From assembly GCA_021324045.1 (NCBI GenBank), contig JAJPJV010000023.1, positions 80,687 to 104,686 of the forward strand: a DNA stretch of 24,000 nt, read 5' to 3'. How positions within the stretch are numbered: the stretch's first letter is position 1; every line of letters begins with the position of its first letter. The stretch comes from Actinomycetota bacterium. GTDB taxonomy: Bacteria > Actinomycetota > Acidimicrobiia > Acidimicrobiales > RAAP-2. The notes beneath the pieces were generated by a model. That model did not search any database. It was given only the letters and a program-made list of their open reading frames with translations, and was not told where the DNA came from. Both the position numbers and the translations under genes were made by a program. This document shows, piece after piece, positions 5,707 to 21,523 of the stretch.

Positions 5707-5828
5707 GTATGCGTGCGCCAGCGGAGACCGTGCGCCGGGCTCGAAGGGGCCCTGGCAGGCGGACCGAGGTGCCCGTCGGTGATCCGCCGGCCGACGAAGC
5801 AGTCCCAGGCGTGTCGGCGATGGATGGA

Positions 5829-5834
5829 TATCGT
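5829..5834 (+). promoter_or_regulatory. putative -10 box (TATCGT) of a leaderless MarR transcript
   Basis: TATCGT matches TAnnnT. It lies exactly 6 nt (gagcga) upstream of the ATG at 5841, which opens the conserved-looking MarR N-terminus MARPLRFDP. Confidence 0.35.
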
Positions 5835-5840
5835 GAGCGA

Positions 5841-6356
5841 ATGGCGCGACCGCTTCGCTTCGATCCGATCATGGAGGCACGCCGGCAGTGGATCGCACAT
5901 GGCTGGGCGGTTCCGGATTGGATGGCCGCGACGACCTCGATCACGCGGGCGCAGCAGATCATCCTTCGCCGGATCGACACGGCCCTGCGTCCCTTGGGCC
6001 TGACGTTCGCCCGCTATGAAGCACTGGTCCTGCTCTCGTTCTCTCGAAAGGGCTCGCTGCCGTTGGGAAAGATGGGCGATCGGTTGATGGTGCATCCCGC
6101 CAGCGTGACCAACGCGATCGACCGCCTCGAAGCAGATGGGCTCGTCGTTCGCTACCCCCATCCCACTGATCGTCGGACGATCCTGGCCGAGATCACCGAC
6201 GCCGGTCGGGCGCTGGTCGAGCAAGCCACCCGTGCGCTCGCGGCGATTCGCTATGGCTTGGAAGGAATGAGCGGTGCAGACGTTCGCGCCATCACGACGT
6301 TGCTCACGAGGCTTCGGAGCGCCGCAGGAGACTTCGTTGCAACTGGAGAAGCGTGA
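5841..6356 (+). CDS. MarR-family transcriptional regulator, divergent from the mutase operon
   Basis: Winged-HTH block LTFARYEALVLLSFSRKGSLPLGKMGDRLMVHPASVTNAIDRLEADGLVVRYPHPTDRRTILAEITDAGRAL. Start chosen at ATG 5841 (alternative 5820). The ORF-track start at 5709 adds an Arg/Pro-rich, non-coding-looking extension and would leave no intergenic space. Confidence 0.8.
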   Translation: MARPLRFDPIMEARRQWIAHGWAVPDWMAATTSITRAQQIILRRIDTALRPLGLTFARYEALVLLSFSRKGSLPLGKMGDRLMVHPASVTNAIDRLEADGLVVRYPHPTDRRTILAEITDAGRALVEQATRALAAIRYGLEGMSGADVRAITTLLTRLRSAAGDFVATGEA

Positions 6357-8487: not shown

Positions 8488-9978
8488 ATGGTCACGTTCT
8501 GGCGGGGCTCTGACGCCAACCGCATGGACCCTCACGTCAAGCGGGTCGCCACCGTGATCGTGCTGGGGTCGATCATGTCCGTGCTCGACACGACCATCGT
8601 CAACATTGCCCTGGACACGCTGTCGAAAGATCTGCACAGCTCGTTGAGCACGATCCAGTGGGTGGTCTCGGCGTACCTATTGGCGCTCGGCGCGGTGATC
8701 CCGCTCACCGGATGGGCGGTGCGCCGTTTCGGCGCGTTCGCGGTCTACATGCAGGCGCTCGTGATGTTCACCCTGGGCTCGGCGCTCTGTGCGCTGTCGA
8801 CGTCGACGAGCGAGCTCATCGCGTTCCGAGCGTTCCAAGGGGTCGGGGGTGGGATGCTCGTGCCCACAGGCATGGTCCTCCTCGTCCAGGCCGCAGGTCC
8901 GGTCCATTTGCCCAAGGTCATGGCCGCGATCGGCGTTCCGATGGTGCTCGCCCCCGTCGTGGGCCCGACCTTGGGGGGGTTCCTCCTCCAGAGCGTGAGC
9001 TGGCATGCCATCTTCATGATCAACATCCCTGTCGGGGTCGTGACCGCCGTCGTCGCCACGCGCCTGCTCCCGCGTCAACCCCCCGACGGTGTCGGGGTTC
9101 GCCGACTCGACTGGCAGGGTTTGGTGCTGTCGGGCGCAGGAACGGTCGGCATCATTTACGGGCTCTCCAAGAGCGCCACCGCGGGGAGCCTCACCGCCAG
9201 CTCGGTGGTGGTGCCGGTGGTGGTGGGCCTTGCGCTGCTCGTGGTGTTCGTCGTTCGTGCCCTGCGAGCCGAGCACCCGCTCCTGGACATGAAGCTCTAC
9301 CGGATCAAGGCATACGGATCGGCCTCGGCGGTCATGTTCTGCCTGGGTGCTGCCATGTTCGGAGCGATGATCCTGTTGCCCCTGTACTTCCAGGTGGCAC
9401 AGGGTCAGGATGCCATTCGCACCGGACTGTTGCTCATTCCCCAGGGGGTTGGGGCGGCAGTCGGGATGAACCGATCGGCCATGGCGACACGGCGTCTGGG
9501 GGCTGGCCTCACTTCCCTCTACGGGGGATTGGTCATGACGGCGGCGACCGTTCCCTTCGCTTTCATGGGTGCCACGACCCCTTATCTCGACCTCGCCGTG
9601 CCGATGGTCGTTCGAGGGGTGGGCATCGGCCTGGCGATCATGCCTGCGTTCACCGCGGCATTCGCGACCCTCGACGACGACCAGGTCACCGACGCCAGTC
9701 CCCAGCTGAACGTCATCCAGCGCATCGGCGCGTCCTTCGGCACGGCAGTAGTGGCCGTGGTCTTGCAGTCCAAGCTCACCCATGCTGGCGTCGCGGGCGC
9801 CGTGGATGGCGCGTCGCGCGCGGCGGCGGCCTTCGACGGGACGTACTGGTGGGTGATGGCCATGAGCGTGGTCGCGTTGGTGCCGGCCGTGATCATGTGG
9901 CGGGTCGAGCGCAAGGTTCGAGCCGACGGCGGACCATCGGCCATCCCTCATGAGGCGCTGATCGAGGTTGCGGCATGA
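8488..9978 (+). CDS. MFS transporter, DHA2 (EmrB/QacA, 14-TMS) drug:H+ antiporter family
   Basis: The N-terminal signature VLGSIMSVLDTTIVNIALDTLSKDLHSSLSTIQWVVSAYLLALGAVIPLTGW and FRAFQGVGGGMLVP is typical of DHA2. Many hydrophobic segments run over 496 aa. Alternative start at Met13 (8524). Confidence 0.9.
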   Translation: MVTFWRGSDANRMDPHVKRVATVIVLGSIMSVLDTTIVNIALDTLSKDLHSSLSTIQWVVSAYLLALGAVIPLTGWAVRRFGAFAVYMQALVMFTLGSALCALSTSTSELIAFRAFQGVGGGMLVPTGMVLLVQAAGPVHLPKVMAAIGVPMVLAPVVGPTLGGFLLQSVSWHAIFMINIPVGVVTAVVATRLLPRQPPDGVGVRRLDWQGLVLSGAGTVGIIYGLSKSATAGSLTASSVVVPVVVGLALLVVFVVRALRAEHPLLDMKLYRIKAYGSASAVMFCLGAAMFGAMILLPLYFQVAQGQDAIRTGLLLIPQGVGAAVGMNRSAMATRRLGAGLTSLYGGLVMTAATVPFAFMGATTPYLDLAVPMVVRGVGIGLAIMPAFTAAFATLDDDQVTDASPQLNVIQRIGASFGTAVVAVVLQSKLTHAGVAGAVDGASRAAAAFDGTYWWVMAMSVVALVPAVIMWRVERKVRADGGPSAIPHEALIEVAA

Positions 9979-10430
9979 CGGTCGTGAAGGACCAGACCGA
10001 CCGCGCACAGGCGCTCGAGGCCGTTCGCTCGGCGATGGTCGAGCTCTTCGGCGCCGAGCGGCGCCTGCGCGCCCGGGACCAAGCGCACGGCGGCCTCACC
10101 AACGCGCAGCTGCGGGCCCTTTTGATCCTCGATCAACACGACGAGGTGACGGCCGGGGAGCTGGCCAAAAGCGCCGACCTCAACCCGGCGAGCGTGACGG
10201 CCATGCTCGATCAGCTCGAATCGAGAGGCATCATCGAGCGTCAGCGGGCACACGACGACCGCCGGGTCTGCATGGTCTCGCTCACCCCGGCCGGGCGCGA
10301 GGTGGTCAAGGAGCGACGTGCGGCATGGCACGCGATGTGGGAGCAGCGCCTGGGACAGTTCTCCGACCATGAGCTCATGGCTGCGCTCTCGGTGCTGCGG
10401 ACGATGACCAAGGTGATCGACGAGCTCTGA
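9975..10430 (+). CDS. MarR-family transcriptional regulator, translationally coupled to the MFS exporter
   Basis: LTNAQLRALLILDQHDEVTAGELAKSADLNPASVTAMLDQLESRGIIERQRAHDDRRVCMVSLTPAGREVV is a MarR wHTH. ATGA overlap with the MFS stop at 9975-9978. Confidence 0.85.
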   Translation: MTVVKDQTDRAQALEAVRSAMVELFGAERRLRARDQAHGGLTNAQLRALLILDQHDEVTAGELAKSADLNPASVTAMLDQLESRGIIERQRAHDDRRVCMVSLTPAGREVVKERRAAWHAMWEQRLGQFSDHELMAALSVLRTMTKVIDEL

Positions 10431-11469: not shown

Positions 11470-11520
11470 GACGGATCGCTGCCCCGTGCCCTAGGGGCCA
11501 AGGTCACATTGCGAGCCGAT

Positions 11521-11654: not shown

Positions 11655-12875
11655 ATGGCGACGCGAGGCGTCGAAGATCGCGGTCCCGGCGGCTGGCCGG
11701 GCGAACTCGACGCGATGCTCGGGGCGATCACCGACTACGCGATCATCACGCTCGACCCCAGCGGCACGGTGACCCGGTGGAGTCGTGGAGCCGAGGCCAT
11801 GACCGGTTTCCTTGCGACCGAGGTGCTGGGGCAGCCGGTTTCGATCCTCTACGCCGACGAAGACCGCAAGAACGGCCTCGTCGAGCAGGGGCTCCGGGGC
11901 GCACGTGACTTCGGACGCTTCCAGCTCGAGGGGTGGCAGGTCAAAAAGGGTGGCGAGCGCTATTGGGCGAACATGACCCTGAGTCCCATCCGAGACGACC
12001 ACAATGCGCTCACCGGCTTCGTCGCGGTGGCCCAAGACGTCACGGAACGCAAGAAGGTGGAGCGGCTCTTCCAGGACCTCTTCGAGACGGCGCCCGACGC
12101 CACCGTCATCGTCGGGCCCGACGGGCGCATCGCCCGGGTCAACCGCCAAGCCGAGGAGCTCTTCGGGTACCGTCGTGACGAGCTCGTGGGCCAAGAGGTC
12201 GAGATCCTCGTACCTCAGCGCTTCCGGCAGAGCCACCCAGCGCTGCGCGGCGGGTTCCTCGCCGCTCCCAGGGCGCGCCCGATGGGCATCGGGCTCGAGC
12301 TGTACGCCATGCGACGGGACGGCAGCGAGGTCCCCGTCGAGATCAGTCTGAGCCCGCTCGAGACCAACGAAGGGGTGCTGGTCTCGGCCGCGATCCGGGA
12401 CGTGACCGAGCGGCACCGACAGCTCGAGCAGTTGCGCCGCCAGCGCGACGAGATCCTGGAGCTCTCCACCCCAGTGATCCAGGTGTGGGACAAGGTCCTG
12501 GCGCTTCCGATCATCGGCACCCTGGACTCCGATCGCGCCTCACGGCTCACCGAGAGCCTGCTGGAGAAGATCAGCGAGCAGCAGGCAGAGGTCGTCATCT
12601 TGGACATCTCCGGCGTGCCGACGATCGACACTTTGGTTGCCCAGCACTTGCTCAAGACGGTCCAGGCCGCGACCCTCATGGGCGCGACGAGCATCATGAG
12701 CGGCGTGCGGCCTGAGACGGCTCAGGCAATGGTGCACCTGGGGATCGACATGGGCCAGCTCCGGAGCCGCAACACGTTGCGCGATGCCTTGCAGCTCGCG
12801 CTGCGCGTGGTTCGGGAACGCAGCGAACTGGCTGACCGAGCGACCCGGAGCATCGAGGTCGAGGAGCTCAGATGA
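11655..12875 (+). CDS. rsbR: RsbR-like stressosome scaffold/sensor: PAS-PAS N-terminus with C-terminal STAS domain
   Basis: Two PAS units, about aa 18-135 and 138-255, each ending in DVTER. The C-terminus ELSTPVIQVWDKVLALPIIGTLDSDRASRL...VVILDISGVPTIDTLVAQHLL...GVRPETAQAMVHLGID matches the RsbR-type STAS. GGAGG lies 6 nt before the ATG. Confidence 0.85.
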   Translation: MATRGVEDRGPGGWPGELDAMLGAITDYAIITLDPSGTVTRWSRGAEAMTGFLATEVLGQPVSILYADEDRKNGLVEQGLRGARDFGRFQLEGWQVKKGGERYWANMTLSPIRDDHNALTGFVAVAQDVTERKKVERLFQDLFETAPDATVIVGPDGRIARVNRQAEELFGYRRDELVGQEVEILVPQRFRQSHPALRGGFLAAPRARPMGIGLELYAMRRDGSEVPVEISLSPLETNEGVLVSAAIRDVTERHRQLEQLRRQRDEILELSTPVIQVWDKVLALPIIGTLDSDRASRLTESLLEKISEQQAEVVILDISGVPTIDTLVAQHLLKTVQAATLMGATSIMSGVRPETAQAMVHLGIDMGQLRSRNTLRDALQLALRVVRERSELADRATRSIEVEELR

Positions 12876-13270
12876 GCGAGGGTGTGCCCGCGCGCGACGA
12901 CGTCTGCCCGATCATGCGGATCGGCGACACGTTGCTCGTGGCCCTCCAAGGCGAGCTCGACGACGCCACCGTGGTCCGCATCGAGGACCGGCTCACCAAG
13001 GAGGTCGCGCGCACCCATGCCACTGGCACCCTGATCGACGTGAGCGGCCTCAGCGTCGTCGACTCCTTCATCGCTCGCGTCATCGCCAGGGTGGTTGGGA
13101 TGGTGCGCTTGCTCGGCTCCGAAGCCGTGGTGGTCGGCATCCAGCCGGCGATCGCGATCACCTTGGTCGAGCTCGGCGTGCCGATGGGGCATCTCGACAC
13201 TGCGCTCGACGCCGAGCAAGGCATGGCGCTGTTGCGCCGACTGCGTGTCGATGGCAACCGAGCTCGTTGA
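12872..13270 (+). CDS. rsbS: RsbS-like single-STAS stressosome protein
   Basis: 132 aa: IMRIGDTLLVALQGELDDATV...LIDVSGLSVVDSFIARVIARVVGMVRLLGSEAVVVGIQPAIAITLVELG. This is collinear with B. subtilis RsbS as I recall it, including the phosphorylatable Ser in the DSFIA motif (Ser65, nt 13064-13066). ATGA overlap with rsbR. Confidence 0.85.
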   Translation: MSEGVPARDDVCPIMRIGDTLLVALQGELDDATVVRIEDRLTKEVARTHATGTLIDVSGLSVVDSFIARVIARVVGMVRLLGSEAVVVGIQPAIAITLVELGVPMGHLDTALDAEQGMALLRRLRVDGNRAR

Positions 13271-13676
13271 ACCGACCGAGGTCGTTGTCCCGATCGATTC
13301 GGAGGCCGACCTCATCCAAGTTCGCCGGGTCCTGCGCACCGAGGCCGTCCGCGCGGGGCTGAGCCTCGTCGATCAGACCAAGCTCGTCACCGCCGGGAGC
13401 GAGCTCGCCCGCAACATCTTGATCTATGCCGGCGACGCTGGGGGGGAGCTCCGGGTCGAGCAGGTCCGTTCCGGCGATCGTCAAGGGGTACGGGCCACGT
13501 TCTCCGACAACGGACCCGGGATCGAGGACGTCGAGGCCGCCCTCACCGACGGGTTCTCCACGAACGGGAGCCTCGGGCTCGGCTTGCCCGGATCCAGACG
13601 CCTCGTCGACGACCTCTCCATTCGTTCCGCGAAGGGAGCCGGCACCACGGTGGTCATCGTAAAGTGGCGACGCTGA
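13251..13676 (+). CDS. rsbT: RsbT-like serine kinase (GHKL ATPase, anti-sigma-factor-type)
   Basis: 141 aa: LVTAGSELARNILIYAG (N-box), DNGPGI (G1), DGFSTNGSLGLGLPGSRRL (G2), VIVKWRR. This closely parallels B. subtilis RsbT. The ATG at 13251 overlaps rsbS by 20 nt. Confidence 0.85.
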   Translation: MATELVEPTEVVVPIDSEADLIQVRRVLRTEAVRAGLSLVDQTKLVTAGSELARNILIYAGDAGGELRVEQVRSGDRQGVRATFSDNGPGIEDVEAALTDGFSTNGSLGLGLPGSRRLVDDLSIRSAKGAGTTVVIVKWRR

Positions 13677-14770
13677 AGGCGAGCACTGCGATCATCGAGT
13701 CCGCGCATCGCTGCCACTTCGTGCGTGCCGAGGAAGACGTCGGTGCGCTGCGGCGTGCGGTGGTCGAGCTCGCGTCGCGCTGCCTCGGGCTCCGGGCCGC
13801 CGATGCAGCGCTCGTCGCCACCGAGCTCGGCACGAACCTGGTCCGGCATGCCACCCCAGGTGGCTATGTGCTGTACCGAGCAGATCGCGAGGGGATCGAG
13901 TTGCTGGCGGTGGACCGTGGACCCGGTTTGGCGCATCAGGGGCAGCTCGCGCTCCGAGGAGCTGCGCACGCGTCGCCCGATCCGCCGGCTCGCCGGCGGG
14001 GGCTGGGAATCGGGCTCGGCGTCGTCGCTCGGACCGCCACCGAGTTCGACCTTTATTCCTCCCGGCCCGGCGGGACGGTGGTGCTGGCACGCCTGCTGTC
14101 GCATCCGCGGCAAAGGACGTGGTGTCGCTGGGGCGCGGTCAACGTCCCGCGCGACCACGTCGGGGATTCGGGGGATGGGTGGATGGTGAGCGTGAACGGA
14201 ACGCTCACCGCGCTCGTCGTCGACGGGCTCGGCCACGGGGAAGCGGCTGCCCGTGCGGCACGAGCGGCCATTTCGGTCTTTGCGGCCCAACCAGGCGCGG
14301 AGCTGGCAGACCTCATGGATCGCGCCGACCAGGCGATGCGCTCGACGCGTGGCGGTGCGTTGGGCGCCTGCTCCATCGATCCCGGATCTCCCGGCGCGTC
14401 CTTCGGGGCCGGATTGCGCTACGTCGGCGTCGGCAATGTCGTCGGCCGGCTCTTCTCTCAGGGGAAGAGTCAGGGCCTCGTCGGCCGCGAGGGCACGCTG
14501 GGGACCCCACTGGGCGTGCGTCGCGCGCCGGTTGCGACGTACCAATGGCCGCCGGGTGCGACCGTCATCCTGGCCTCCGATGGCCTGCGGACTCGCTGGG
14601 ACCCGTTGGCGTACCCCGGCCTTCTCGGTCGTGACCCCTCGGTCGTGGCTGCGGTCTTGCACCGTGACTTCGGGCGAACCAGTGACGACGCGACGGTCCT
14701 GGTCATCGAGGACCTCCGCTCCGGGTCCTCGGGAGCCGAGGAGGGCCGGCTCGCATCGCCACGCCGATGA
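13664..14770 (+). CDS. fusion protein: N-terminal RsbT/RsbW-like GHKL kinase domain + C-terminal RsbX-type PP2C (SpoIIE) phosphatase
   Basis: N-terminal part (about nt 13706-14098): VATELGTNLVRHA, DRGPGL, GLGIGLGV. C-terminal part (about nt 14126-14713): GDSGDGW...LVVDGLGHGEAAARAA...MRSTRGGALG...VGVGNV...ILASDGL...TSDDATVLVIE parallels RsbX. The GTG start overlaps the rsbT end by 13 nt. Confidence 0.8.
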   Translation: MATLKASTAIIESAHRCHFVRAEEDVGALRRAVVELASRCLGLRAADAALVATELGTNLVRHATPGGYVLYRADREGIELLAVDRGPGLAHQGQLALRGAAHASPDPPARRRGLGIGLGVVARTATEFDLYSSRPGGTVVLARLLSHPRQRTWCRWGAVNVPRDHVGDSGDGWMVSVNGTLTALVVDGLGHGEAAARAARAAISVFAAQPGAELADLMDRADQAMRSTRGGALGACSIDPGSPGASFGAGLRYVGVGNVVGRLFSQGKSQGLVGREGTLGTPLGVRRAPVATYQWPPGATVILASDGLRTRWDPLAYPGLLGRDPSVVAAVLHRDFGRTSDDATVLVIEDLRSGSSGAEEGRLASPRR

Positions 14771-16392
14771 GCGCCCGTGCGAATGTCGTCTCCACGGTGG
14801 GGATCGAGACCGAACGCGACTTGATCGAGCTGCGCAGGCTGGCCCAGCAGATCGCGGCCGGTTCGGGACTGGCGCTGCAGACCCAGGTGCAGCTGGTCAT
14901 CGCGGCCACCGAGGTCGCGCTCCACGCCCTGCGCCGCGGCGGTGGGGGAACCGTCACCTTCAGGGTCGTCGGTGACGACGATGCTCGCCTCGAAGTCGTT
15001 GCCGACTCGGGATCCGGCACCGGCGAGCTCGGTGCCCTGGAGGCGGCGAGCCCCGAGGCCGGGCTGGCATGTGCGCGCCGCAACGCAGAGCAGCTGGCGA
15101 TCGAGCACCCAGCCGGGGGAGGCACGACGGTCAGGCTGTCGTGGACCCTCCCCCCGGAGGCGCAGCGCCATCCCACCCTCGGGGGCCCTCCCGACGGCGG
15201 GATGGGAGCGCTCGCTGACCTCCTCCGCCGGGAGGACCTGGTGTTGGAGCAGGTCGTCACCCTCCTTGGCAGCAAGGACTCGGAGCTCCAACGAAGCCAA
15301 TCGGAGATCGCTGAGCTGGTGGAAGAGCTCGAAGAGACCAATCGCGGACTCGTGGCGCTCCACGTCGAGCTCGAGGATGCCCGGGAGGCGGAGGCGCACC
15401 TTGCGGCGATCGTCCGCTCGTCTGACGACGCCATGTGGTCGTTGACCCCCGAGCTGACGATTGGCACCTGGAACGCTGGCGCTGAGCAGCTCCTCGGCTA
15501 CCGGCAAGAGGAGATCCTCGGCCGTCCCGCATCGATCCTGGTCCCCGAGGAGGAGCGCAGCGCCTTCACCGCGGCCCTCGAGCAGCTCTCGGGCGGCGAG
15601 CACGCGGTGCGTTACGACACGTGGCGTCGGCGCAAGGATGGCTCCTTGGTCGAGGTGTCGGTCACGCTGTCGGCGATCCGCGACGCGACAGACCGCCTTG
15701 TCGGCTACTCCGCGGTGGTCCGAGACCTCACGAGTCGCCGGCAAGCCGAACAGGCGTTGGCGGAAGCCTGGGCCGCGCACGAAGTGCTTGCGGATCGGGA
15801 CCGTATCGCCCGTGATCTCCACGACCTGGTGGTGCAACGACTCTTCGCGAGCGGCATGGCGTTGCAGGGCGTGCTCAGCCTCGCCGAGCACCCTCAGGTG
15901 CGGAGCCGCATGGAGAACGTCATCGACGATCTCGATGCCACCATCGCCGAGATCCGCTCGACGATCTTCGCCCTGGGGCACGGCCCCAAGCCCGCGAAAG
16001 GCGGCGGGCTTCGCGCTGAGATGCTCGCGGTCGCCTCCAAGGCCGCCGAGCTGCTCGGCTTCCAGCCGCGACTGGAGTTCAGCGGCCCGGTCGACACCGC
16101 GATTCCCGACGACGTTGCGGACCATCTGCTCGCCACCGCTCGCGAGGCGCTCTCGAACGTCGCGCGCCACGCTGGCGCTTCGACGGTCGAGGTCACTGTC
16201 CAGGCTGGGAGCGAGATCGTGCTCGAGGTCACCGACGACGGTCGGGGGATGGGCTCGGTCACCCACCGGAGCGGGCTGGCGAACCTAGAGCGTCGAGCGA
16301 AGATGCTCGGCGGACGTTTCGAGGTGTCCGCCAACGGCGAGCGGGGGACCCGCGTGGAATGGCGGGTCCCGCTCCCGGCCTCCTCTGGGTGA
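14767..16392 (+). CDS. sensor histidine kinase: degenerate GHKL-like N-domain, coiled coil, PAS, HisKA_3, HATPase_c
   Basis: HisKA_3 H-box DRDRIARDLHDLVVQRLFASGMALQG (His352, nt 15820-15822), similar to the DevS/NarX/DesK class. HATPase_c blocks LATAREALSNVARHAG, DDGRGM and SGLANLERRAKMLGG. PAS at about aa 212-325. The N-terminal 128 aa resemble RsbT but with altered ATP-binding motifs. ATGA overlap with the upstream gene. Confidence 0.85.
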   Translation: MSARANVVSTVGIETERDLIELRRLAQQIAAGSGLALQTQVQLVIAATEVALHALRRGGGGTVTFRVVGDDDARLEVVADSGSGTGELGALEAASPEAGLACARRNAEQLAIEHPAGGGTTVRLSWTLPPEAQRHPTLGGPPDGGMGALADLLRREDLVLEQVVTLLGSKDSELQRSQSEIAELVEELEETNRGLVALHVELEDAREAEAHLAAIVRSSDDAMWSLTPELTIGTWNAGAEQLLGYRQEEILGRPASILVPEEERSAFTAALEQLSGGEHAVRYDTWRRRKDGSLVEVSVTLSAIRDATDRLVGYSAVVRDLTSRRQAEQALAEAWAAHEVLADRDRIARDLHDLVVQRLFASGMALQGVLSLAEHPQVRSRMENVIDDLDATIAEIRSTIFALGHGPKPAKGGGLRAEMLAVASKAAELLGFQPRLEFSGPVDTAIPDDVADHLLATAREALSNVARHAGASTVEVTVQAGSEIVLEVTDDGRGMGSVTHRSGLANLERRAKMLGGRFEVSANGERGTRVEWRVPLPASSG

Positions 16393-16422: not shown

Positions 16423-18942
16423 TCAGCCGCCGGGGTGTGCGAGCTCCCGAACGATCGCTTCAGGTTGTGGTGCCACGCCCCTCGAAGCGGCCGATGGTCG
16501 TGCACCGGACGCGGTGCTACCGATCGGTTGGCGGCCGGATCCCTCACGGGTCTGTCGGCCGAGCCGACGTTCGACCTCGAGTACCGCGCGCGTCGTGGGC
16601 ACCACGGTGTCGGGGTTCAGGCTCATCGAGTCGATACCGATCTCCACCAGGAACTGCGCGATGTCGGGGTAGTCCGACGGTGCCTGGCCACAGAGCCCGG
16701 AGTGGATGCCGTTGCGTCTGCAGCCCTCCACCGCCAAGCGGATCATGGTCTTGACACCCTCGTCGCGTTCGTCGTAGTCGAAGGCCACGACCTCGCTATC
16801 GCGATCGACCCCGAGCGTGAGTTGGGTGAGGTCGTTGGATCCGATGGAGAACCCGTCGAAGAGTTCGGCGAAGCGATCGATCAGGATCACGTTATTGGGG
16901 ACCTCGCACATCGCGTAGATCTGCAGACCGTCGTGTCCACGGACGAGCCCCAGTTCGGCCATGCGCGCCAGGACCTGGCGCGCCTCCTCGACCCGGCGGA
17001 CGAAGGGGATCATGAGCACGACGTTGGTGAGGCCCATGTCCTGGCGAACTCGTCGCATCGCTTCGCACTCCAGCGCGAAACCCTCGCTGTAGGCGGGGTG
17101 CGCATAGCGCGAAGCACCCCGGAAGCCAAGCATCGGGTTGGCTTCCTTGGGCTCGAAGTCCTCGCCACCGAGCAAGCTTGCGTACTCGTTCGTCTTGAAG
17201 TCCGACATCCGGACGACGACGGGTTTTGGCCAGAAGGCGGCAGCGATGGTACCGATGCCCTCGGACAACCGCTCGACGAAGTAGTGCGCCCCGTCTCGGT
17301 ACCCGTGCAGGAGCCGCTCGATCTCGGCGCGCGCGCCAGGGTCGGTCACCTGATCGGGGTGCACGAGAGCGAGGGGGTGCGCCTTGATGGACTCGCTCAC
17401 GATGAACTCCATGCGGGCGAGGCCGACCCCGTCGTTGGGGAGGAATGAGGTGGCGAAGGCGAGGTCGGGATTCCCGAGGTTGACCATGATCTTCGTTGCC
17501 GGCCGCGCGAGCGCTTCGGTACTGGTGCGCTCGATCCGAAAGCCCACCAGCCCGCGGTAGACGCGGCCGGTCTCGCCTTCGGCGCATGAGACCGTCACCA
17601 CCTCGCCGCTTCGCACTCGGTTCGTGGCGTCCTTCGTGCCGACCACGGCAGGGATCCCGAGCTCCCGGGCGACGATCGCCGCGTGGCACGTCCGGCCACC
17701 TCGATTGGTGACGATGGCCGCGGCCGTCTTCATCACCGGCTCCCAGTCGGGGGTGGTGGTATCGGCGATGAGCACCTCGCCGGCCTGGAACGCTTTCAGC
17801 TGGGTGACGTCGTCGATGCGCCGAGCGGTTCCGGCGGCGACCTTCTCCCCGACGGCGCGCCCTTGGGCGATGACTTCTCCTCCGGCCTCGACGACGTAGC
17901 GCTCGATGGCGGCAGGGGCACGCTGGGAGACACTGGTCTCCGGCCGGGCCTGGACCAGGTAGATCTGGCCGTCCAGACCGTCCTTGGCCCACTCCATGTC
18001 CATGGGGCGCCCGTAGTGGGCCTCGATCGCGCAGGCATTGTCGGCGAGCTCGAGCACCTCGTCGTCGCTCAGGCAGAAGCGCGATCGATCGGCTCTGGGG
18101 GTGGGGACGTTGCGCGTCGTCTGGCGGCCTCCCCCCTGGGAGAAGACCATCTTCACTGCCTTGTCCCCGAGCACTCGGCGCAGCACCGTTCGATGGCCGG
18201 CGAGGAAGGTCGGTTTGAAGACGGTGAACTCGTCGGGGTCGACCGCCCCCTGCACCACGTTCTCGCCGAGGCCATAGGAGCCGGTGATGAAGACCACGTC
18301 ACGGAAGCCTGACTCGGTGTCGAGGGAGAACATCACCCCCGCGGATGCCAGGTCCGAGCGCACCATCTTCATGATCCCGATCGACAGCAGCGTCTTGAAG
18401 TGGTCGAAGCCTTGGTCGACGCGGTAGTGGATCGCGCGGTCCAAGAACAAGCTCGCGAAGCACCGCCGGCAGGCCTCGAGGAGGTTGGCGTCTCCGCGGA
18501 CGTTGAGGTAGCTCTCGTGCTGCCCGGCGAAACTGGCACTAGGGAGGTCCTCGGAGGTGGCCGAGCTGCGGACGGCGAGGCTGACCTCGGGCCCATAGCG
18601 GGCTTGGAGCTCCCGATAGCCTGCAAGGATCTCGGAGCGCAGTGCCTCTGGGAGGCCAGCGCCGTAGACAATTTCGCGGGCCCGCTGTCCTCGTCGCGCC
18701 AGGTCGTCGACGTCGGCGGTGTCCAGACCATCCAGGGCCGCGCGCAGCGGCTCCCATGCCCCGGCCTCATCGAGCATGGCGCGGTAGGCGGCGGTGGTGA
18801 CCGCGAACCCCTCGGGCACTCGTACCCCTGCGCTGGCGAGGTGGCGAAGCATTTCCCCCAGGGAGGCATTCTTCCCGCCAACGAGGGCGAGATCCTCCAT
18901 GCCGATCTCGTCGAAGAAGCGGATGTAGCGCGGCGAGCTCAT
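16423..18942 (-). CDS. ppsA: phosphoenolpyruvate synthase (pyruvate, water dikinase)
   Basis: 839 aa from MSSPRYIRFFDEIGMEDLALVGGKNASLGEM. Phospho-His loop TNRGGRTCHAAIVARELGIPAVVG. PEP-utilising C-domain with GSNDLTQ and LCGQAPSDYP. The ORF-track entry (1627 aa) is trimmed to the ATG at 18940-18942. Confidence 0.92.
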   Translation of the reverse strand: MSSPRYIRFFDEIGMEDLALVGGKNASLGEMLRHLASAGVRVPEGFAVTTAAYRAMLDEAGAWEPLRAALDGLDTADVDDLARRGQRAREIVYGAGLPEALRSEILAGYRELQARYGPEVSLAVRSSATSEDLPSASFAGQHESYLNVRGDANLLEACRRCFASLFLDRAIHYRVDQGFDHFKTLLSIGIMKMVRSDLASAGVMFSLDTESGFRDVVFITGSYGLGENVVQGAVDPDEFTVFKPTFLAGHRTVLRRVLGDKAVKMVFSQGGGRQTTRNVPTPRADRSRFCLSDDEVLELADNACAIEAHYGRPMDMEWAKDGLDGQIYLVQARPETSVSQRAPAAIERYVVEAGGEVIAQGRAVGEKVAAGTARRIDDVTQLKAFQAGEVLIADTTTPDWEPVMKTAAAIVTNRGGRTCHAAIVARELGIPAVVGTKDATNRVRSGEVVTVSCAEGETGRVYRGLVGFRIERTSTEALARPATKIMVNLGNPDLAFATSFLPNDGVGLARMEFIVSESIKAHPLALVHPDQVTDPGARAEIERLLHGYRDGAHYFVERLSEGIGTIAAAFWPKPVVVRMSDFKTNEYASLLGGEDFEPKEANPMLGFRGASRYAHPAYSEGFALECEAMRRVRQDMGLTNVVLMIPFVRRVEEARQVLARMAELGLVRGHDGLQIYAMCEVPNNVILIDRFAELFDGFSIGSNDLTQLTLGVDRDSEVVAFDYDERDEGVKTMIRLAVEGCRRNGIHSGLCGQAPSDYPDIAQFLVEIGIDSMSLNPDTVVPTTRAVLEVERRLGRQTREGSGRQPIGSTASGARPSAASRGVAPQPEAIVRELAHPGG

Positions 18943-19112
18943 CTTCACAGCATCGAGGGTTGCCGGGGCGCGCGCTAGGGGCGAAAGTACCCATTTGCGG
19001 CCGGTTGCCGGCCAGGGTAGGCAGCCGCTTCCCGGGTCACCGTCTCTGCGGAGGCCCGGCCAGAGGACCTTCAGCCCTATTCGCTGCCCCCACGCAGCGC
19101 GATCCTGGCCAG

Positions 19113-19544
19113 ATGGGACGGATCGTGGTCGGAGTCGACGGCTCGATGCCGTCGAGGGAGGCGCTGTTGTGGGCGGTTTCGGAGGCCGCGCACACCGGGG
19201 CTGTGGTGGAGCCCATGATGGTCTGGGAGAACCCCTACCGCGAGATGTGGCTCCCCCACGTCGAGCCCCGAGGCGACCCGCTCGCCCTCGTCCGGCAACG
19301 GCTCGATCTCCTGGTCGAAGAGGTCCTCGGCCCCCACCCCGATGTCCCGATCGAACCGCTGGTTGCCGAGGGCGCTCCGGCCCGGATGCTCGTGGGTGCA
19401 GCGAAGGGTGCAGACCTCCTCGTGGTCGGCAACCGCGGGAGGGGCGGCTTCGTCGGCGTTCTGCTGGGGTCGGTGAGCTTCCACTGCGTGTCGCATGCGC
19501 CGTGTCCCGTCGTCGTGGTCCGTGGCGAGCCCGACGGGTCGTAA
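19113..19544 (+). CDS. universal stress protein (UspA family)
   Basis: 143 aa: MGRIVVGVDGSMPSREALLWAVSEA...ADLLVVGNRGRGGFVGVLLGSVSFHCVSHAPCPVVVV. This carries the canonical Usp ATP-binding G-2x-G-9x-G(S/T) block. The upstream part of the 18960 ORF is rejected. Confidence 0.85.
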   Translation: MGRIVVGVDGSMPSREALLWAVSEAAHTGAVVEPMMVWENPYREMWLPHVEPRGDPLALVRQRLDLLVEEVLGPHPDVPIEPLVAEGAPARMLVGAAKGADLLVVGNRGRGGFVGVLLGSVSFHCVSHAPCPVVVVRGEPDGS

Positions 19545-21219
19545 CGGGGCAGCCGTGCCCGCTGGTCGGTCGACGTCGCGGCGAGTGTTCGGGCACCGAG
19601 GGCTCACGCTCGCCGTGCTCTCGGTGAGCCTGCTGTTGGTCAGCCTCGACATGATGATCCTCAACGTCGCGCTCCCCGTCATCGCTCGGTCGATGCATGC
19701 GTCCTCGAGCGAACTGGCGTGGTTCGTCGATGCCTACGTGGTCGTCTTCGCCGGGTTGCTCCTGGTCGCCGGCAGCCTGGGCGATCGCCTGGGGCGCAAG
19801 TGGGTGTTCATGGTGGGGTTGGCGGCGTTCGCAGCGGGATCCGCGGCGTCCGCGTTCTCCGGGACGCCGGACCGGCTCATCGCGGCGCGGGCCTTCATGG
19901 GGATCGGTGGCGCAGCCATCATGCCCACGACCTTGTCCATCCTCACCAACGTCTACACCGAGGCCCAGGAGCGAGCTCGGGCCATCGGGATCTGGTCGGG
20001 GACGACGGGGCTCGGCGTCGCCCTCGGTCCGATGGCCGGTGGCTTCCTGTTGGCCCATTACTGGTGGGGATCGGTGTTCTTGGTGAACGTGCCGGTCGCA
20101 TTGGTGGGGCTGGTCGCGACGCCATGGCTGGTGCCCAACTCCAAGAACACGGCTGCCAAGCCTTCCGATCCGACAGGCGCCGGGCTCTCCATGGTCGGGA
20201 TGGGGCTGCTGTTGTGGGGCATCATCGAAGCCCCGACGCGCACGTGGAGCTCCCCGCTGATCCTCGGCGCCCTGACGGGGGCGCTCGTCGTGCTGGGTGC
20301 GTTCGTGATCTGGGAGCGTCGCTCGGTGCACCCCATGCTCGAGCTGGCGTTCTTCCGCTCCGCGCGGTTTTCGGCAGCCATCGCCGCGATGGCCATGGTG
20401 ATGTTCGCGTTGATGGGGTTCCTGTTCCTCCTGACCCAGTACCTGCAGTTCTCGCTGGGCTATAGCGCGTTCCAAACCGGGCTGCGCGTGGCCCCGGTCG
20501 CCGTCGTCTTCTTGATCGTCGCCCCGCTGTCGGCTGCCGCGGCGCGCGTCCTGGGAACCAAGGTCGTCGTGTTCGCTGGGATGGGGCTTGTCGTGGTGGG
20601 CTCGGTCCTGCTGTCGCGCGTCAGCGTGTCGGGCACCTACAACGACGTGCTCCCTGCGCTCTTCTTCCTCGGCGTCGGGACGGGCCTGGCGTTCGCCCCT
20701 TCGACGGAATCCGTGATGGGTTCGTTGCCGCTCGAGGATGCCGGCGTGGGATCGGCCACGAACAGCACCGCCATCCAGATCGGCGGTGCTCTGGGCGTCG
20801 CGGTACTGGGGAGCATCCTCAATACCCGCTACCAGGATCGGCTGGCCCCGCTCCTCGCCCGCCGGGGCGTTGGGCCTTCGGTTGCCCACCTCGTCACGGG
20901 CTCGTTGGGCGGGGCGCTCGCGGTCGCCGGCCATCTGGGTGGTGCGCTGGGCGACGCCCTCGCGACCGTCGCGCGCCAGGCCTTCGTGAGCGGCATGGAC
21001 GTGGCGGTCAGCGTGGGAGCCGGGGTGGTGGCAGGAGCGGCATTCGTGGTGATCGGGTTGCTTCCCAATCGCGCCCGCCCCACCCGAGCGGAATTCGGGG
21101 CGTTCGGCCCTAGCGAAGGAGGCGAACAGGGCACACCATGGGACGAAAGACGCGGAAAGGGGTCGAGAGATGAACCAGACCCGAACCTGGCTCGAAACCA
21201 ACGAGAAGCAGCTGGCTGA
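19495..21219 (+). CDS. MFS transporter, DHA2 (EmrB/QacA) family, second copy
   Basis: LAVLSVSLLLVSLDMMILNVALPVIARSMHASSSELAWFVDAYVVVFAGLLLVAGSLGDRLGRK, ARAFMGIGGAAIMP, and about 14 hydrophobic segments. Start uncertain: ATG 19495 overlaps usp by 50 nt, and GTG 19555 is an alternative. The last 35 or so codons have AT-rich third positions, so the tail may be read-through. Confidence 0.85.
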   Translation: MRRVPSSWSVASPTGRNGAAVPAGRSTSRRVFGHRGLTLAVLSVSLLLVSLDMMILNVALPVIARSMHASSSELAWFVDAYVVVFAGLLLVAGSLGDRLGRKWVFMVGLAAFAAGSAASAFSGTPDRLIAARAFMGIGGAAIMPTTLSILTNVYTEAQERARAIGIWSGTTGLGVALGPMAGGFLLAHYWWGSVFLVNVPVALVGLVATPWLVPNSKNTAAKPSDPTGAGLSMVGMGLLLWGIIEAPTRTWSSPLILGALTGALVVLGAFVIWERRSVHPMLELAFFRSARFSAAIAAMAMVMFALMGFLFLLTQYLQFSLGYSAFQTGLRVAPVAVVFLIVAPLSAAAARVLGTKVVVFAGMGLVVVGSVLLSRVSVSGTYNDVLPALFFLGVGTGLAFAPSTESVMGSLPLEDAGVGSATNSTAIQIGGALGVAVLGSILNTRYQDRLAPLLARRGVGPSVAHLVTGSLGGALAVAGHLGGALGDALATVARQAFVSGMDVAVSVGAGVVAGAAFVVIGLLPNRARPTRAEFGAFGPSEGGEQGTPWDERRGKGSRDEPDPNLARNQREAAG

Positions 21220-21523
21220 GATCGCGCGAGCCTCAGGAACCGTTCCCTGGCTCGTCCATCTCGCGGCGGTCCTCGTTGCTGACGGGCTGACCGACGCGCA
21301 GATCATTGACCAATGTGCAGCGCTGAGGACCAGGCTCCATTCAGCGGACGGTTTTCCTGCCGGCCTGCGGCGCGCGCTCCCCGAGATCAGGGAGCTGGCG
21401 AGCGATCTCGGCGTTGGAGCATCCGAGGGTGGTGATGATGGACAGCAGCGATCGAGGGAACGAGGAGCGGTCCGCGAGCGGGCGTGGCGCCCACGCGCCG
21501 GATCCCGGGCAAGGGCGGGCTGA
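21170..21523 (+). CDS. hypothetical small protein (no recognisable family)
   Basis: The first 80 or so codons give a helical-looking sequence (MNQTRTWLETNEKQLAEIARASGTVPWLVHLAAVLVADGLTDAQIIDQCAALRTRL) with roughly 75 percent GC3 by hand count. The last 35 or so codons look non-coding and overlap the next ORF. True 3' end uncertain. Confidence 0.35.
   Translation: MNQTRTWLETNEKQLAEIARASGTVPWLVHLAAVLVADGLTDAQIIDQCAALRTRLHSADGFPAGLRRALPEIRELASDLGVGASEGGDDGQQRSRERGAVRERAWRPRAGSRARAG

Follow-up and report, generated by a model that had tools for sequence, protein, structure and literature searches.

A stressosome-type gene module directly followed by an orphan histidine kinase: the actinobacterial variant of a pan-bacterial arrangement

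Results

Five overlapping genes encode a stressosome-type module and a histidine kinase

We analysed a 24-kb stretch of DNA (24,000 nucleotides; hereafter the window) from an Actinomycetota bacterium of the class Acidimicrobiia (assembly GCA_021324045.1, contig JAJPJV010000023.1, positions 80,687–104,686), in which five plus-strand genes encode a stressosome-type RsbR-RsbS-RsbT-RsbX (R-S-T-X) module and, directly after it, a histidine kinase. All named close relatives of the methylmalonyl-CoA mutase encoded in the window (73–79% identity) belong to metagenome-assembled genomes of Acidimicrobiales or Acidimicrobiia, which points to an uncultured actinobacterial source, and public metagenome contigs, recorded as up to 575 kb long, encode proteins identical to those of the window. 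A sequence-only reading of this stretch had proposed that the kinase stands in place of the usual sigma-factor cascade. The genes and the features within them are as follows.

11655..12875, plus strand: RsbR-type co-antagonist, 406 amino acids (aa); PAS1 at about aa 20–137, PAS2 at about aa 138–256, STAS at about aa 262–387
12066..12422, plus strand: PAS2 of RsbR, a candidate haem-type PAS; His194 codon at 12234–12236
12872..13270, plus strand: RsbS-type single-STAS antagonist, 132 aa; predicted phospho-acceptor Ser65 in 'VVDSF'
13251..13676, plus strand: GHKL serine kinase at the RsbT position, 141 aa; N box E51..N55, G1 box D86-x-G-x-G and G2 box intact
13664..14770, plus strand: GHKL::PP2C phosphatase, 368 aa; N-terminal GHKL domain (X_N) at about aa 20–145, RsbX-type PP2C at about aa 165–350
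14767..16392, plus strand: orphan sensor histidine kinase, 541 aa; GHKL fold aa 5–134, helix 146–204, PAS 206–331, HisKA_3 344–404, HATPase_c 446–537
14779..15168, plus strand: N-terminal GHKL-fold domain of the kinase (HK_N); NCBIfam RsbA_anti_sig, 6.9e-9
15325..15378, plus strand: signalling-helix motif ELEETNRGLVALHVELED, kinase aa 187–204, a candidate site of coupling between module and kinase

The window is GC-rich (about 66–71%), and gene frames were judged by the GC content of third codon positions (GC3). This frame analysis supports the five open reading frames (ORFs) as real genes, and an independent gene caller returns the same five on an identical public contig. Their coordinates are exactly those given in the sequence-only reading, and the junctions it described are present as well, namely ATGA overlaps at 12872–12875 and 14767–14770, a 20-nt overlap at 13251–13270 and a 13-nt overlap at 13664–13676. 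Pfam and NCBIfam agree with the domain orders it had assigned (PAS-PAS-STAS; STAS; HATPase_c_2; HATPase_c_2 plus SpoIIE/PP2C; and RsbW-like-PAS-HisKA_3-HATPase_c). It had also noted that sigma factors, RsbU, RsbV, RsbW and response regulators are missing around the operon, and this holds for the entire 24-kb window: none was found by Pfam searches of all GC3-supported ORFs or by phmmer with a NarL-type regulator. A scan of the operon for sigma-70 promoters and intrinsic terminators gave nothing informative in this high-GC DNA.

RsbR and RsbS keep their predicted phosphorylation sites

Judged by their sequences, the first two proteins are clear orthologs of RsbR and RsbS with conserved phospho-sites. 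In RsbR, Pfam detects PAS_9 in two stretches (1.8e-36) and STAS (2.9e-14), and the nearest PDB entries to the STAS domain are RsbR of Vibrio vulnificus (7O0I, 6.3e-33) and of Listeria (1e-28). RsbS matches B. subtilis RsbS (6JHK, 1.2e-28), Listeria RsbS (1.9e-27) and Moorella MtS (1.9e-20), and, far below these, SpoIIAA (5e-4). Profile searches therefore place both 12872–13270 and the C-terminus of 11655–12875 in the STAS family, as had been proposed. The acceptor sites named in the sequence-only reading are borne out by conservation. Ser65 of RsbS aligns with Ser59 of B. subtilis RsbS, is Ser or Thr in 81 of 81 orthologs and lies between Asp64 and Phe66, which are invariant in the same set; in RsbR, Thr326 is kept in 81/81 orthologs and the Ser292 position holds Ser or Thr in 80/81. 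By motif position (DS/TxR and IDT) we take Ser292 and Thr326 to be the counterparts of Thr171 and Thr205 of B. subtilis RsbRA.

The second PAS domain of RsbR may bind haem. Its best PDB matches are 10JX (1e-22), DosP (3.7e-16) and FixL (3.9e-16), and His194 aligns with 'RHEH' of FixL and 'RPAH' of DosP and is kept in all 27 orthologs that have PAS2. The aligned positions are those of the proximal haem ligands, His194 in RmFixL and His77 in EcDOS. On the distal side, the Arg of FixL and the Met/Arg of DosP are replaced by Leu/Ile. His194 hints at a stressosome that senses O2, NO, CO or redox state through a haem-PAS, parallel to the globin-based one of Vibrio. RsbR also matches NCBIfam YtvA_fam (8.6e-40 over aa 156–379), a match that we attribute to the PAS-linker-STAS architecture; a LOV/YtvA-type photoreceptor was rejected on inspection by eye, which found no flavin-binding NCRFLQ motif in PAS2.

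Three RsbT-like domains are encoded at one locus

The third protein belongs to the RsbT/RsbW kinase family by its Pfam profile (HATPase_c_2, 5.5e-12), in agreement with the earlier placement of 13251–13676. Its best PDB match is SpoIIAB, and its N, G1 and G2 boxes are invariant in 80 of 80 orthologs.

The fourth protein gives Pfam matches to HATPase_c_2 (5.6e-9) and SpoIIE (2.1e-7). The only phosphatases in the PDB that its PP2C domain matches are Moorella MtX (3ZT9, 5.2e-9) and B. subtilis RsbX (3W40, 0.0087), and the metal-binding motifs GDSGDG, DGLGHG, SDG and DDAT are all present. The protein is a predicted RsbX-type phosphatase that departs from its family by the extra N-terminal GHKL domain. 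A search of 1.84 billion cluster representatives gave 620 two-domain phosphatases of this kind at E ≤ 1e-30.

The histidine kinase also begins with a GHKL fold. An AlphaFold2 model of its residues 1–205, with a mean predicted local distance difference test score (pLDDT) of 85.6, consists of a GHKL domain (5–134) and a single helix (146–204). The best Foldseek matches of the HK_N model are RsbW (6M36/6M37), the mycobacterial UsfX and SpoIIAB, all of them anti-sigma kinases with structures solved together with STAS partners. In profile-profile comparison with hhalign, X_N matches the RsbT family with 99.8% probability, and HK_N of the window clade matches the RsbT family with 98.1% and the pan-bacterial kinase N-domains with 99.2%. 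The comparison shows X_N and HK_N to be paralogs of RsbT, so that the locus encodes three such GHKL domains. An RsbU_N receiver on the kinase was considered and rejected, as Pfam finds no RsbU_N match at E ≤ 0.01 in any of the five proteins.

The ATP-binding motifs of X_N (N box and G1) are kept in the window and in about 82 of 83 orthologs, and those of HK_N in 20 of the 24 kinases of the pan-bacterial set. In HK_N of the window the N box reads E48..H52, the Asn having become His52, the G2 box is lost and the ATP lid is short. HK_N is mostly degenerate in close relatives too, one of which (P0002) retains all three boxes by eye. Across the family HK_N is intact in most phyla, degenerate in the window and lost in Streptomyces. 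What the sequence-only reading had called an RsbT-like N-domain thus has the RsbT/RsbW fold; its ATP motifs are degenerate, so it is not an active RsbT-like kinase. We regard HK_N of the window as a predicted pseudokinase, and the locus as one that appears to stand at an intermediate stage of HK_N loss.

Two relatives show other states of these domains. In a close one (L007:3859-4902), X_N lacks the N-box Asn and the G1 box and the PP2C part is intact; X_N thus seems able to work without binding ATP in some lineages, which suggests that its role is docking rather than catalysis. A Ramlibacter metagenome-assembled genome (L059:6371-10255) has the order R-S-X-kinase without a stand-alone RsbT, its RsbT-like domains being only those fused to the phosphatase and the kinase. 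A fused RsbT-like domain may therefore be able to replace RsbT at that locus.

The R-S-T-X-kinase module occurs across bacterial phyla

A scan with the phosphatase alignment, at one genome per species, returned at least 439 loci, and 82 non-redundant loci were annotated. R-S-T lies directly upstream of the GHKL::PP2C phosphatase in 79/82, and a histidine kinase follows X directly in 76/82; three of the six exceptions are truncated contigs. This synteny strongly supports the proposal that a histidine kinase takes the place of a sigma cascade. The gene after X falls into the following classes.

Short PAS-HisKA_3 kinase: 27 loci
HisKA_3 kinase with HK_N: 2 loci, plus the window itself
HisKA kinase with an intact RsbT-like N-domain, often with receiver domains: 21 loci
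Minimal HisKA kinase of about 290 aa (Pseudomonas, Dyella, Luteibacter, a planctomycete): 21 loci
Other HisKA kinase: 5 loci
None or other: 6 loci, 3 of them truncated contigs

Streptomyces, Pseudomonas, Nitrospira, Acidobacteriota and cyanobacteria are among the sources of the loci, and RsbT-like::HisKA kinases occur in, among others, Nitrospirota, Bacillota, Acidobacteriota, Pseudomonadota, Verrucomicrobiota, Cyanobacteria and Cellulomonas. Other metagenomic actinobacteria also contain the five-gene cluster, at an identity of about 50% and between unrelated neighbours. A form with a short kinase that lacks HK_N occurs in numerous genomes of Streptomyces, Kitasatospora, Wenjunlia, Planomonospora and Streptosporangiaceae. 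The RsbR sensor is RsbRD_N, not PAS, in the nine non-actinomycete loci sampled and in one Cellulomonas locus. The flanking genes, which might have hinted at a regulator or regulon, are not conserved: none of their families occurs in more than 7 of 29 loci.

The main correction to the sequence-only reading, which knew of no characterised case of this architecture, is that the architecture is not unique. The combination of a PAS-PAS RsbR with a kinase-fused RsbX and a PAS-HisKA_3 kinase is the standard one in Streptomyces, Kitasatospora and Streptosporangiales, and two of the listed features, the fusion in RsbX and the RsbT-like domain at the N-terminus of the kinase, are pan-bacterial. The window has the gene order and the helix motif (below) of the pan-bacterial R-S-T-X-kinase module as defined in this analysis, and is its actinobacterial (PAS, HisKA_3) variant.

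In five non-actinobacterial loci (L065, L070, L080, L083 and L086) a sixth same-strand gene of about 650–800 aa, with PAS-like regions, follows a hybrid kinase. Its product may, like VvD2 of Vibrio, serve as a second relay or output component.

A conserved helix precedes the catalytic core of the module kinases

Pfam detects HisKA_3 (2e-11) and HATPase_c (1e-12) in the window kinase, and the nearest PDB structures to its catalytic domain are DevS (3ZXO, 6.9e-19) and DosT (6.4e-15). His352 (in 'DLHD') is present in 29 of 30 orthologs and the N-box Asn in all 30. Pfam finds no GAF domain in the kinase, the sensor region of which consists of the GHKL-like domain, the helix and the PAS.

The end of the long helix carries a motif that we found in all classes of module kinase, with the consensus ELE[ED]TN[RQK]G[VL]xAL[YH]xEL[DE] (in short form ELEETNRGxxALxxEL). 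Its columns E, T, N, R, G, A, L, E and L are invariant among 13 kinases from several phyla. In the window the motif lies inside the predicted helix 146–204, where pLDDT is about 89–97. About nine in ten module kinases carry it overall: it, or a close variant, is present in 30/30 HisKA_3 module kinases, and the motif itself in 21/21 minimal kinases and 13/21 RsbT-like::HisKA kinases. It is rare outside the module (1/25 GAF-type and 1/16 mid-length HisKA_3 kinases). A profile of the GHKL domain plus helix matched at least 2061 clusters; its top 120 matches all combine HATPase_c_2 with HATPase_c and nearly all have HisKA, the few exceptions being short fragments, and 118 of the 120 carry the motif. 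A full-length homolog of the window kinase on a JGI metagenome contig (P0033, L005:7027-11416; 46% identity) lies outside an R-S-T-X context, has a degenerate N-domain and is without the ELEETNRG motif.

In HisKA members the motif directly abuts the H-box; in actinobacterial members a PAS separates the helix from the DHp domain. By Pfam, the only domains of the Pseudomonas-type kinases (about 290 aa) are HisKA and HATPase_c, and the conserved helix lies ahead of them. Because Pfam detects nothing else in these kinases, a protein partner is their likeliest input, and because the helix precedes these sensor-less kinases, it is the best candidate for the point at which the module signal enters. 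The motif thus appears to be specific to module kinases and is the best candidate coupling site.

Neighbouring genes and the search for an output regulator

No NarL-type regulator lies within about 8 kb in 28 of 30 HisKA_3-type loci, and those in the other two belong to a neighbouring pair. The orphan status of the kinase is conserved across related loci.

The gene downstream of the kinase is a convergent ppsA, as the sequence-only reading had stated, and its real extent is 16423–18942 on the minus strand (839 aa). The 1627-aa minus-strand ORF at 16423–21306 was rejected as a high-GC artefact: only its residues 792–1584 are phosphoenolpyruvate (PEP) synthase, and the rest overlaps two plus-strand genes, usp and an MFS transporter gene (19477–21219). 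The window further contains genes for a CBS protein, a glyoxalase, a PNPOx-family protein, an acyl-CoA dehydrogenase, a methylmalonyl-CoA mutase, two MarR regulators, two short-chain dehydrogenases (SDRs), an enoyl-CoA hydratase, two MFS transporters (the one above included), an M50 peptidase and an ABC/FtsX pair. The MarR genes (5709–6356 and 9954–10430, both plus) flank a fatty-acid/propionate block with the mutase, acyl-CoA dehydrogenase, SDR, enoyl-CoA hydratase and MFS genes, and appear unrelated to the R-S-T-X-kinase module.

One lead to a regulon came from the promoters.

11492..11507, no strand: tentative OsdR/DevR-like box TAGGGGCCAAGGTCAC in the divergent SDR/rsbR promoter, 148–163 nt upstream of the rsbR ATG

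A second and better box, AGGGGCGAAAGTACCC, lies at 18976–18991, between the starts of ppsA (18942, minus) and usp (19113, plus), and is identical at 13 of 16 positions to the predicted Streptomyces coelicolor OsdR site AGGGCCGAAAGTCCCG. OsdR binds the intergenic region between a USP gene and a pyruvate-phosphate-dikinase gene (SCO0207/SCO0208) in S. coelicolor (PMC5069765), and the divergent dikinase/Usp promoter of the window has the same gene arrangement. The 13-mer common to 11492–11504 and 18976–18988 gives two matches where 0.15 are expected, with a pattern derived post hoc from these very sites. A strict OsdR-type filter rejects the box upstream of rsbR, and the window contains no excess of the plain palindrome GGGACN4GTCCC. 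Given the post hoc 13-mer and the lack of box enrichment in 29 loci (below), we rejected a DosR/OsdR regulon link except as a weak lead, and output of the kinase to a DevR/OsdR-type regulon is a hypothesis only.

The usp gene (19113–19544, plus, 143 aa), the CBS gene (597–1157) and the PNPOx-family gene (1847–2377) likewise resemble genes of dormancy-regulon type. Usp, CBS or PNPOx neighbours also occur in three related loci (L004, L005 and L018); in L005 the kinase homolog P0033 has a Usp nearby, as well as a NarL-type regulator and the OsdR-like box GGGGCGATGGTCCC.

Discussion

A proposed route from the stressosome to the kinase

The gene structure, the domain identities, the conserved catalytic and acceptor residues and the linkage of R-S-T-X to a kinase across phyla are established by this work. 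The explanation that we favour for them, and that as a whole we hold to be slightly better than an even bet, is that the five genes form one translationally coupled operon joining a stressosome-type input to a two-component output. RsbR, with two PAS sensors and a STAS domain, and RsbS would build a scaffold that holds RsbT. A signal at the PAS domains of RsbR would let RsbT phosphorylate Ser65 of RsbS and Ser292/Thr326 of RsbR and then dissociate from it. The direct target of the released RsbT would be the downstream histidine kinase, most likely contacted at the helix of aa 187–204, which would feed through the PAS into the DHp domain and switch autophosphorylation at His352. This step would be analogous to the known action of RsbT on RsbU, which is exerted by way of the N-domain and the coiled-coil linker (PMC12143880). 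The output would be carried by an unlinked NarL-family regulator, possibly a DevR/OsdR-like one. The phosphatase would dock on the STAS scaffold through X_N and reset it with its RsbX-type PP2C domain, and HK_N of the kinase would be a degenerate remnant of an ancestral fused RsbT paralog that helps docking at most. From the patterns above we infer complex formation, the binding partners, the direction of signalling, the signal and the regulator. That RsbT-like domains and kinases act together is suggested, in the manner of a Rosetta-stone argument, by the fusions of RsbT paralogs to kinases in many phyla and by the Ramlibacter locus without a free RsbT.

Several observations weigh against this explanation. 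In V. vulnificus an interaction between RsbT and the kinase VvD1 was undetectable (PMC9237108). NCBIfam and PDB searches gave no RsbT-specific profile or structure match for the third protein, so it is called RsbT rather than RsbW by fold, size and gene position only. The helix motif TNRG is absent from 8 of the 21 fused (RsbT-like::HisKA) kinases. No regulator is linked to the kinase, and strict OsdR-type boxes occur upstream of rsbR in 3/29 loci, with no enrichment (0.22 versus 0.13 per kb). The kinase also carries a PAS of its own and could be regulated independently.

Alternative explanations

This last point would suit a reading in which adjacency reflects co-regulation only, the module and the kinase answering related stresses without contact, and interaction has been demonstrated for no stressosome-linked kinase (PMC9237108). 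We consider it quite improbable all the same. Stop and start codons overlap, the kinases have a module-specific helix motif and the locus has fused RsbT paralogs; moreover, the linkage spans phyla with non-conserved flanks, despite swaps of the kinase class, of the RsbR sensor and of the accessory domains of the kinase. That same linkage bears on whether R-S-T-X controls an unlinked sigma factor of SigB/SigF type, for example with X_N as an RsbW-like anti-sigma factor and the kinase as a parallel sensor or input. X_N does match the RsbA anti-sigma family and retains its ATP-binding motifs; in S. coelicolor SCO7325 acts as RsbV for SigB and the RsbW homolog SCO7328 interacts with SigB-family sigma factors (PMC8346170, PMC9739823), and mycobacterial stressosome genes are linked to SigF (PMC8115616). 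However, a kinase follows X in 76/82 loci, including those of proteobacteria that have no SigB, and the Pseudomonas-type kinases, in which Pfam finds no sensor domain, make sense only with input from the module. No sigma factor or RsbV/W is present in the window, and none was seen in the related loci with precomputed Pfam tables, the remaining fetched loci not having been screened for sigma factors. Control of an unlinked sigma factor is in our view improbable, if a little less so than mere co-regulation.

A rival that keeps the kinase as output is direct sequestration, in which the kinase (and the phosphatase) dock on RsbR/RsbS through their own RsbT-like domains, and phosphorylation of the STAS proteins by RsbT releases or re-orients the kinase without RsbT binding it. 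Several observations fit this: three paralogous GHKL domains (RsbT, X_N and HK_N) are encoded beside two STAS proteins, the best structural matches of HK_N come from the complexes RsbW-RsbV, UsfX-RsfB and SpoIIAB-SpoIIAA, the ATP motifs of HK_N are intact in 20/24 pan-bacterial kinases, and the Ramlibacter locus has no free RsbT. HK_N of the window, however, has lost the N-box Asn and the G2 box, and the Streptomyces- and Pseudomonas-type kinases, which have no HK_N, keep both the linkage and the helix motif. Because these kinases keep the linkage, HK_N cannot be the universal coupling element. We rate direct sequestration as unlikely, though it is the most probable of the three alternatives, and prefer action of released RsbT on the kinase helix.

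Comparison with known systems

Wiring of stressosomes to two-component proteins is reportedly already in Pané-Farré 2005, and non-sigma outputs are said to have been catalogued since that year. The sequence-only reading had pointed to stressosome modules beside two-component proteins, for example in Vibrio; these are indeed published, with genetics in V. vulnificus (PMC9237108, PMC10014275). Non-sigma outputs have been studied in V. vulnificus, V. brasiliensis and Moorella, and those studies concern a single-domain RsbX and outputs with RsbU_N or with no recognised receiver (PMC9237108, PMC10014275, PMC4976288, PMC12143880). No description of the GHKL-fused RsbX, the GHKL-fused kinase or the helix motif was found in the searchable literature, where full-text searches led to nothing beyond Heinz 2022, and Pané-Farré 2005/2017 may already mention GHKL-fused outputs. 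The module is known in outline and is not known to have been studied in its actinobacterial form.

The closest comparison is with V. vulnificus and V. brasiliensis, which we compared by description, except for the RsbR and RsbS chains of PDB 7O0I, which were compared by sequence. They share with the window the R-S-T-X order, with the phosphatase directly after RsbT, the absence of RsbU/V/W and SigB, and a PAS-containing sensor kinase immediately downstream that is taken as the output (PMC9237108, PMC10014275, PMC4976288). The RsbR sensor is a haem globin in Vibrio and PAS-PAS in the window, and RsbX is by description a single-domain PP2C in Vibrio, whereas that of the window carries a GHKL domain. 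The Vibrio output consists of the sensor kinase VvD1 and VvD2, thought to control cyclic di-GMP, in contrast to the orphan HisKA_3 (NarL-class) kinase of the window, which has a degenerate RsbT-like N-domain and no linked regulator.

With B. subtilis and Listeria monocytogenes the window shares RsbS and the RsbR STAS domain, which are clear orthologs (E of 1e-28) and have their phospho-acceptors at the same positions. In both, RsbS is followed by a small GHKL kinase, and an RsbX-type PP2C is present. Unlike them, the window has no RsbU, RsbV, RsbW or sigma factor, PAS-PAS instead of the non-haem globin N-domain of RsbR, a GHKL-fused RsbX and, as output, a histidine kinase without RsbU_N. Moorella thermoacetica (MtR-MtS-MtT-MtX with MtG) and the proteobacterial RsbU_N kinases likewise have a module re-wired to a non-sigma output through RsbT. 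MtX is the closest solved relative of the window PP2C domain, and control through a coiled-coil linker of the effector has been proposed in that system (PMC12143880). Their outputs take RsbT by the four-helix RsbU_N domain, whereas the window kinase family has a single-helix motif with or without a fused RsbT paralog.

Among solved structures, the HisKA_3 and HATPase_c core is nearest to DevS and DosT, which invites comparison with two dormancy two-component systems, DevS/DosT-DevR of M. tuberculosis and OsdK-OsdR of S. coelicolor. The window neighbours Usp, PEP/pyruvate dikinase, PNPOx and CBS, with the OsdR-like box, mirror SCO0207/0208 (PMC5069765). The sensor of the window kinase is a PAS, however, where DevS, DosT and OsdK have tandem GAF domains with haem in GAF-A, and no DevR/OsdR gene is linked to it in the window. 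S. coelicolor SCO7324–SCO7328 is also an actinobacterial operon, of five genes, that opens with RsbR/RsbS-like genes and contains an orphan kinase (PMC7244524, PMC9739842). Compared by literature only, it differs in that SCO7327/OsaD is a hybrid kinase with a receiver, SCO7325 is the RsbV for SigB and SCO7328 is an RsbW homolog (PMC8346170). What is known of that operon comes solely from omics work and studies of interactions (PMC7244524, PMC9739842, PMC8346170).

Significance

For stressosome signalling to targets other than RsbU/SigB, V. vulnificus is the best-studied non-sigma case, and it gave no detectable interaction of RsbT with the kinase. The family described here makes the coupling step testable, as it offers kinases of about 290 aa in which one conserved helix precedes the HisKA and HATPase_c domains, the only ones seen by Pfam, natural fusions of RsbT paralogs to this helix-kinase unit, a phosphatase with the same paralog, and culturable hosts in Streptomyces and Pseudomonas. 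More tentatively, and with a probability that we would put clearly below even, the module may be a large, phylum-spanning system in which one STAS scaffold is served by three RsbT-like GHKL domains, the helix is a dedicated receptor for the RsbT signal, and the Acidimicrobiia/Streptomyces branch has been re-wired to a DevS-like HisKA_3 kinase and haem-type PAS sensors. If true, this would be a general and previously undescribed mechanism that couples partner-switching (Ser/Thr) directly to two-component (His-Asp) signalling. For Actinomycetota the family also points to a way in which redox or oxygen signals, sensed by PAS domains and possibly through haem, might reach a DevR/OsdR-type dormancy regulon by way of an orphan kinase.

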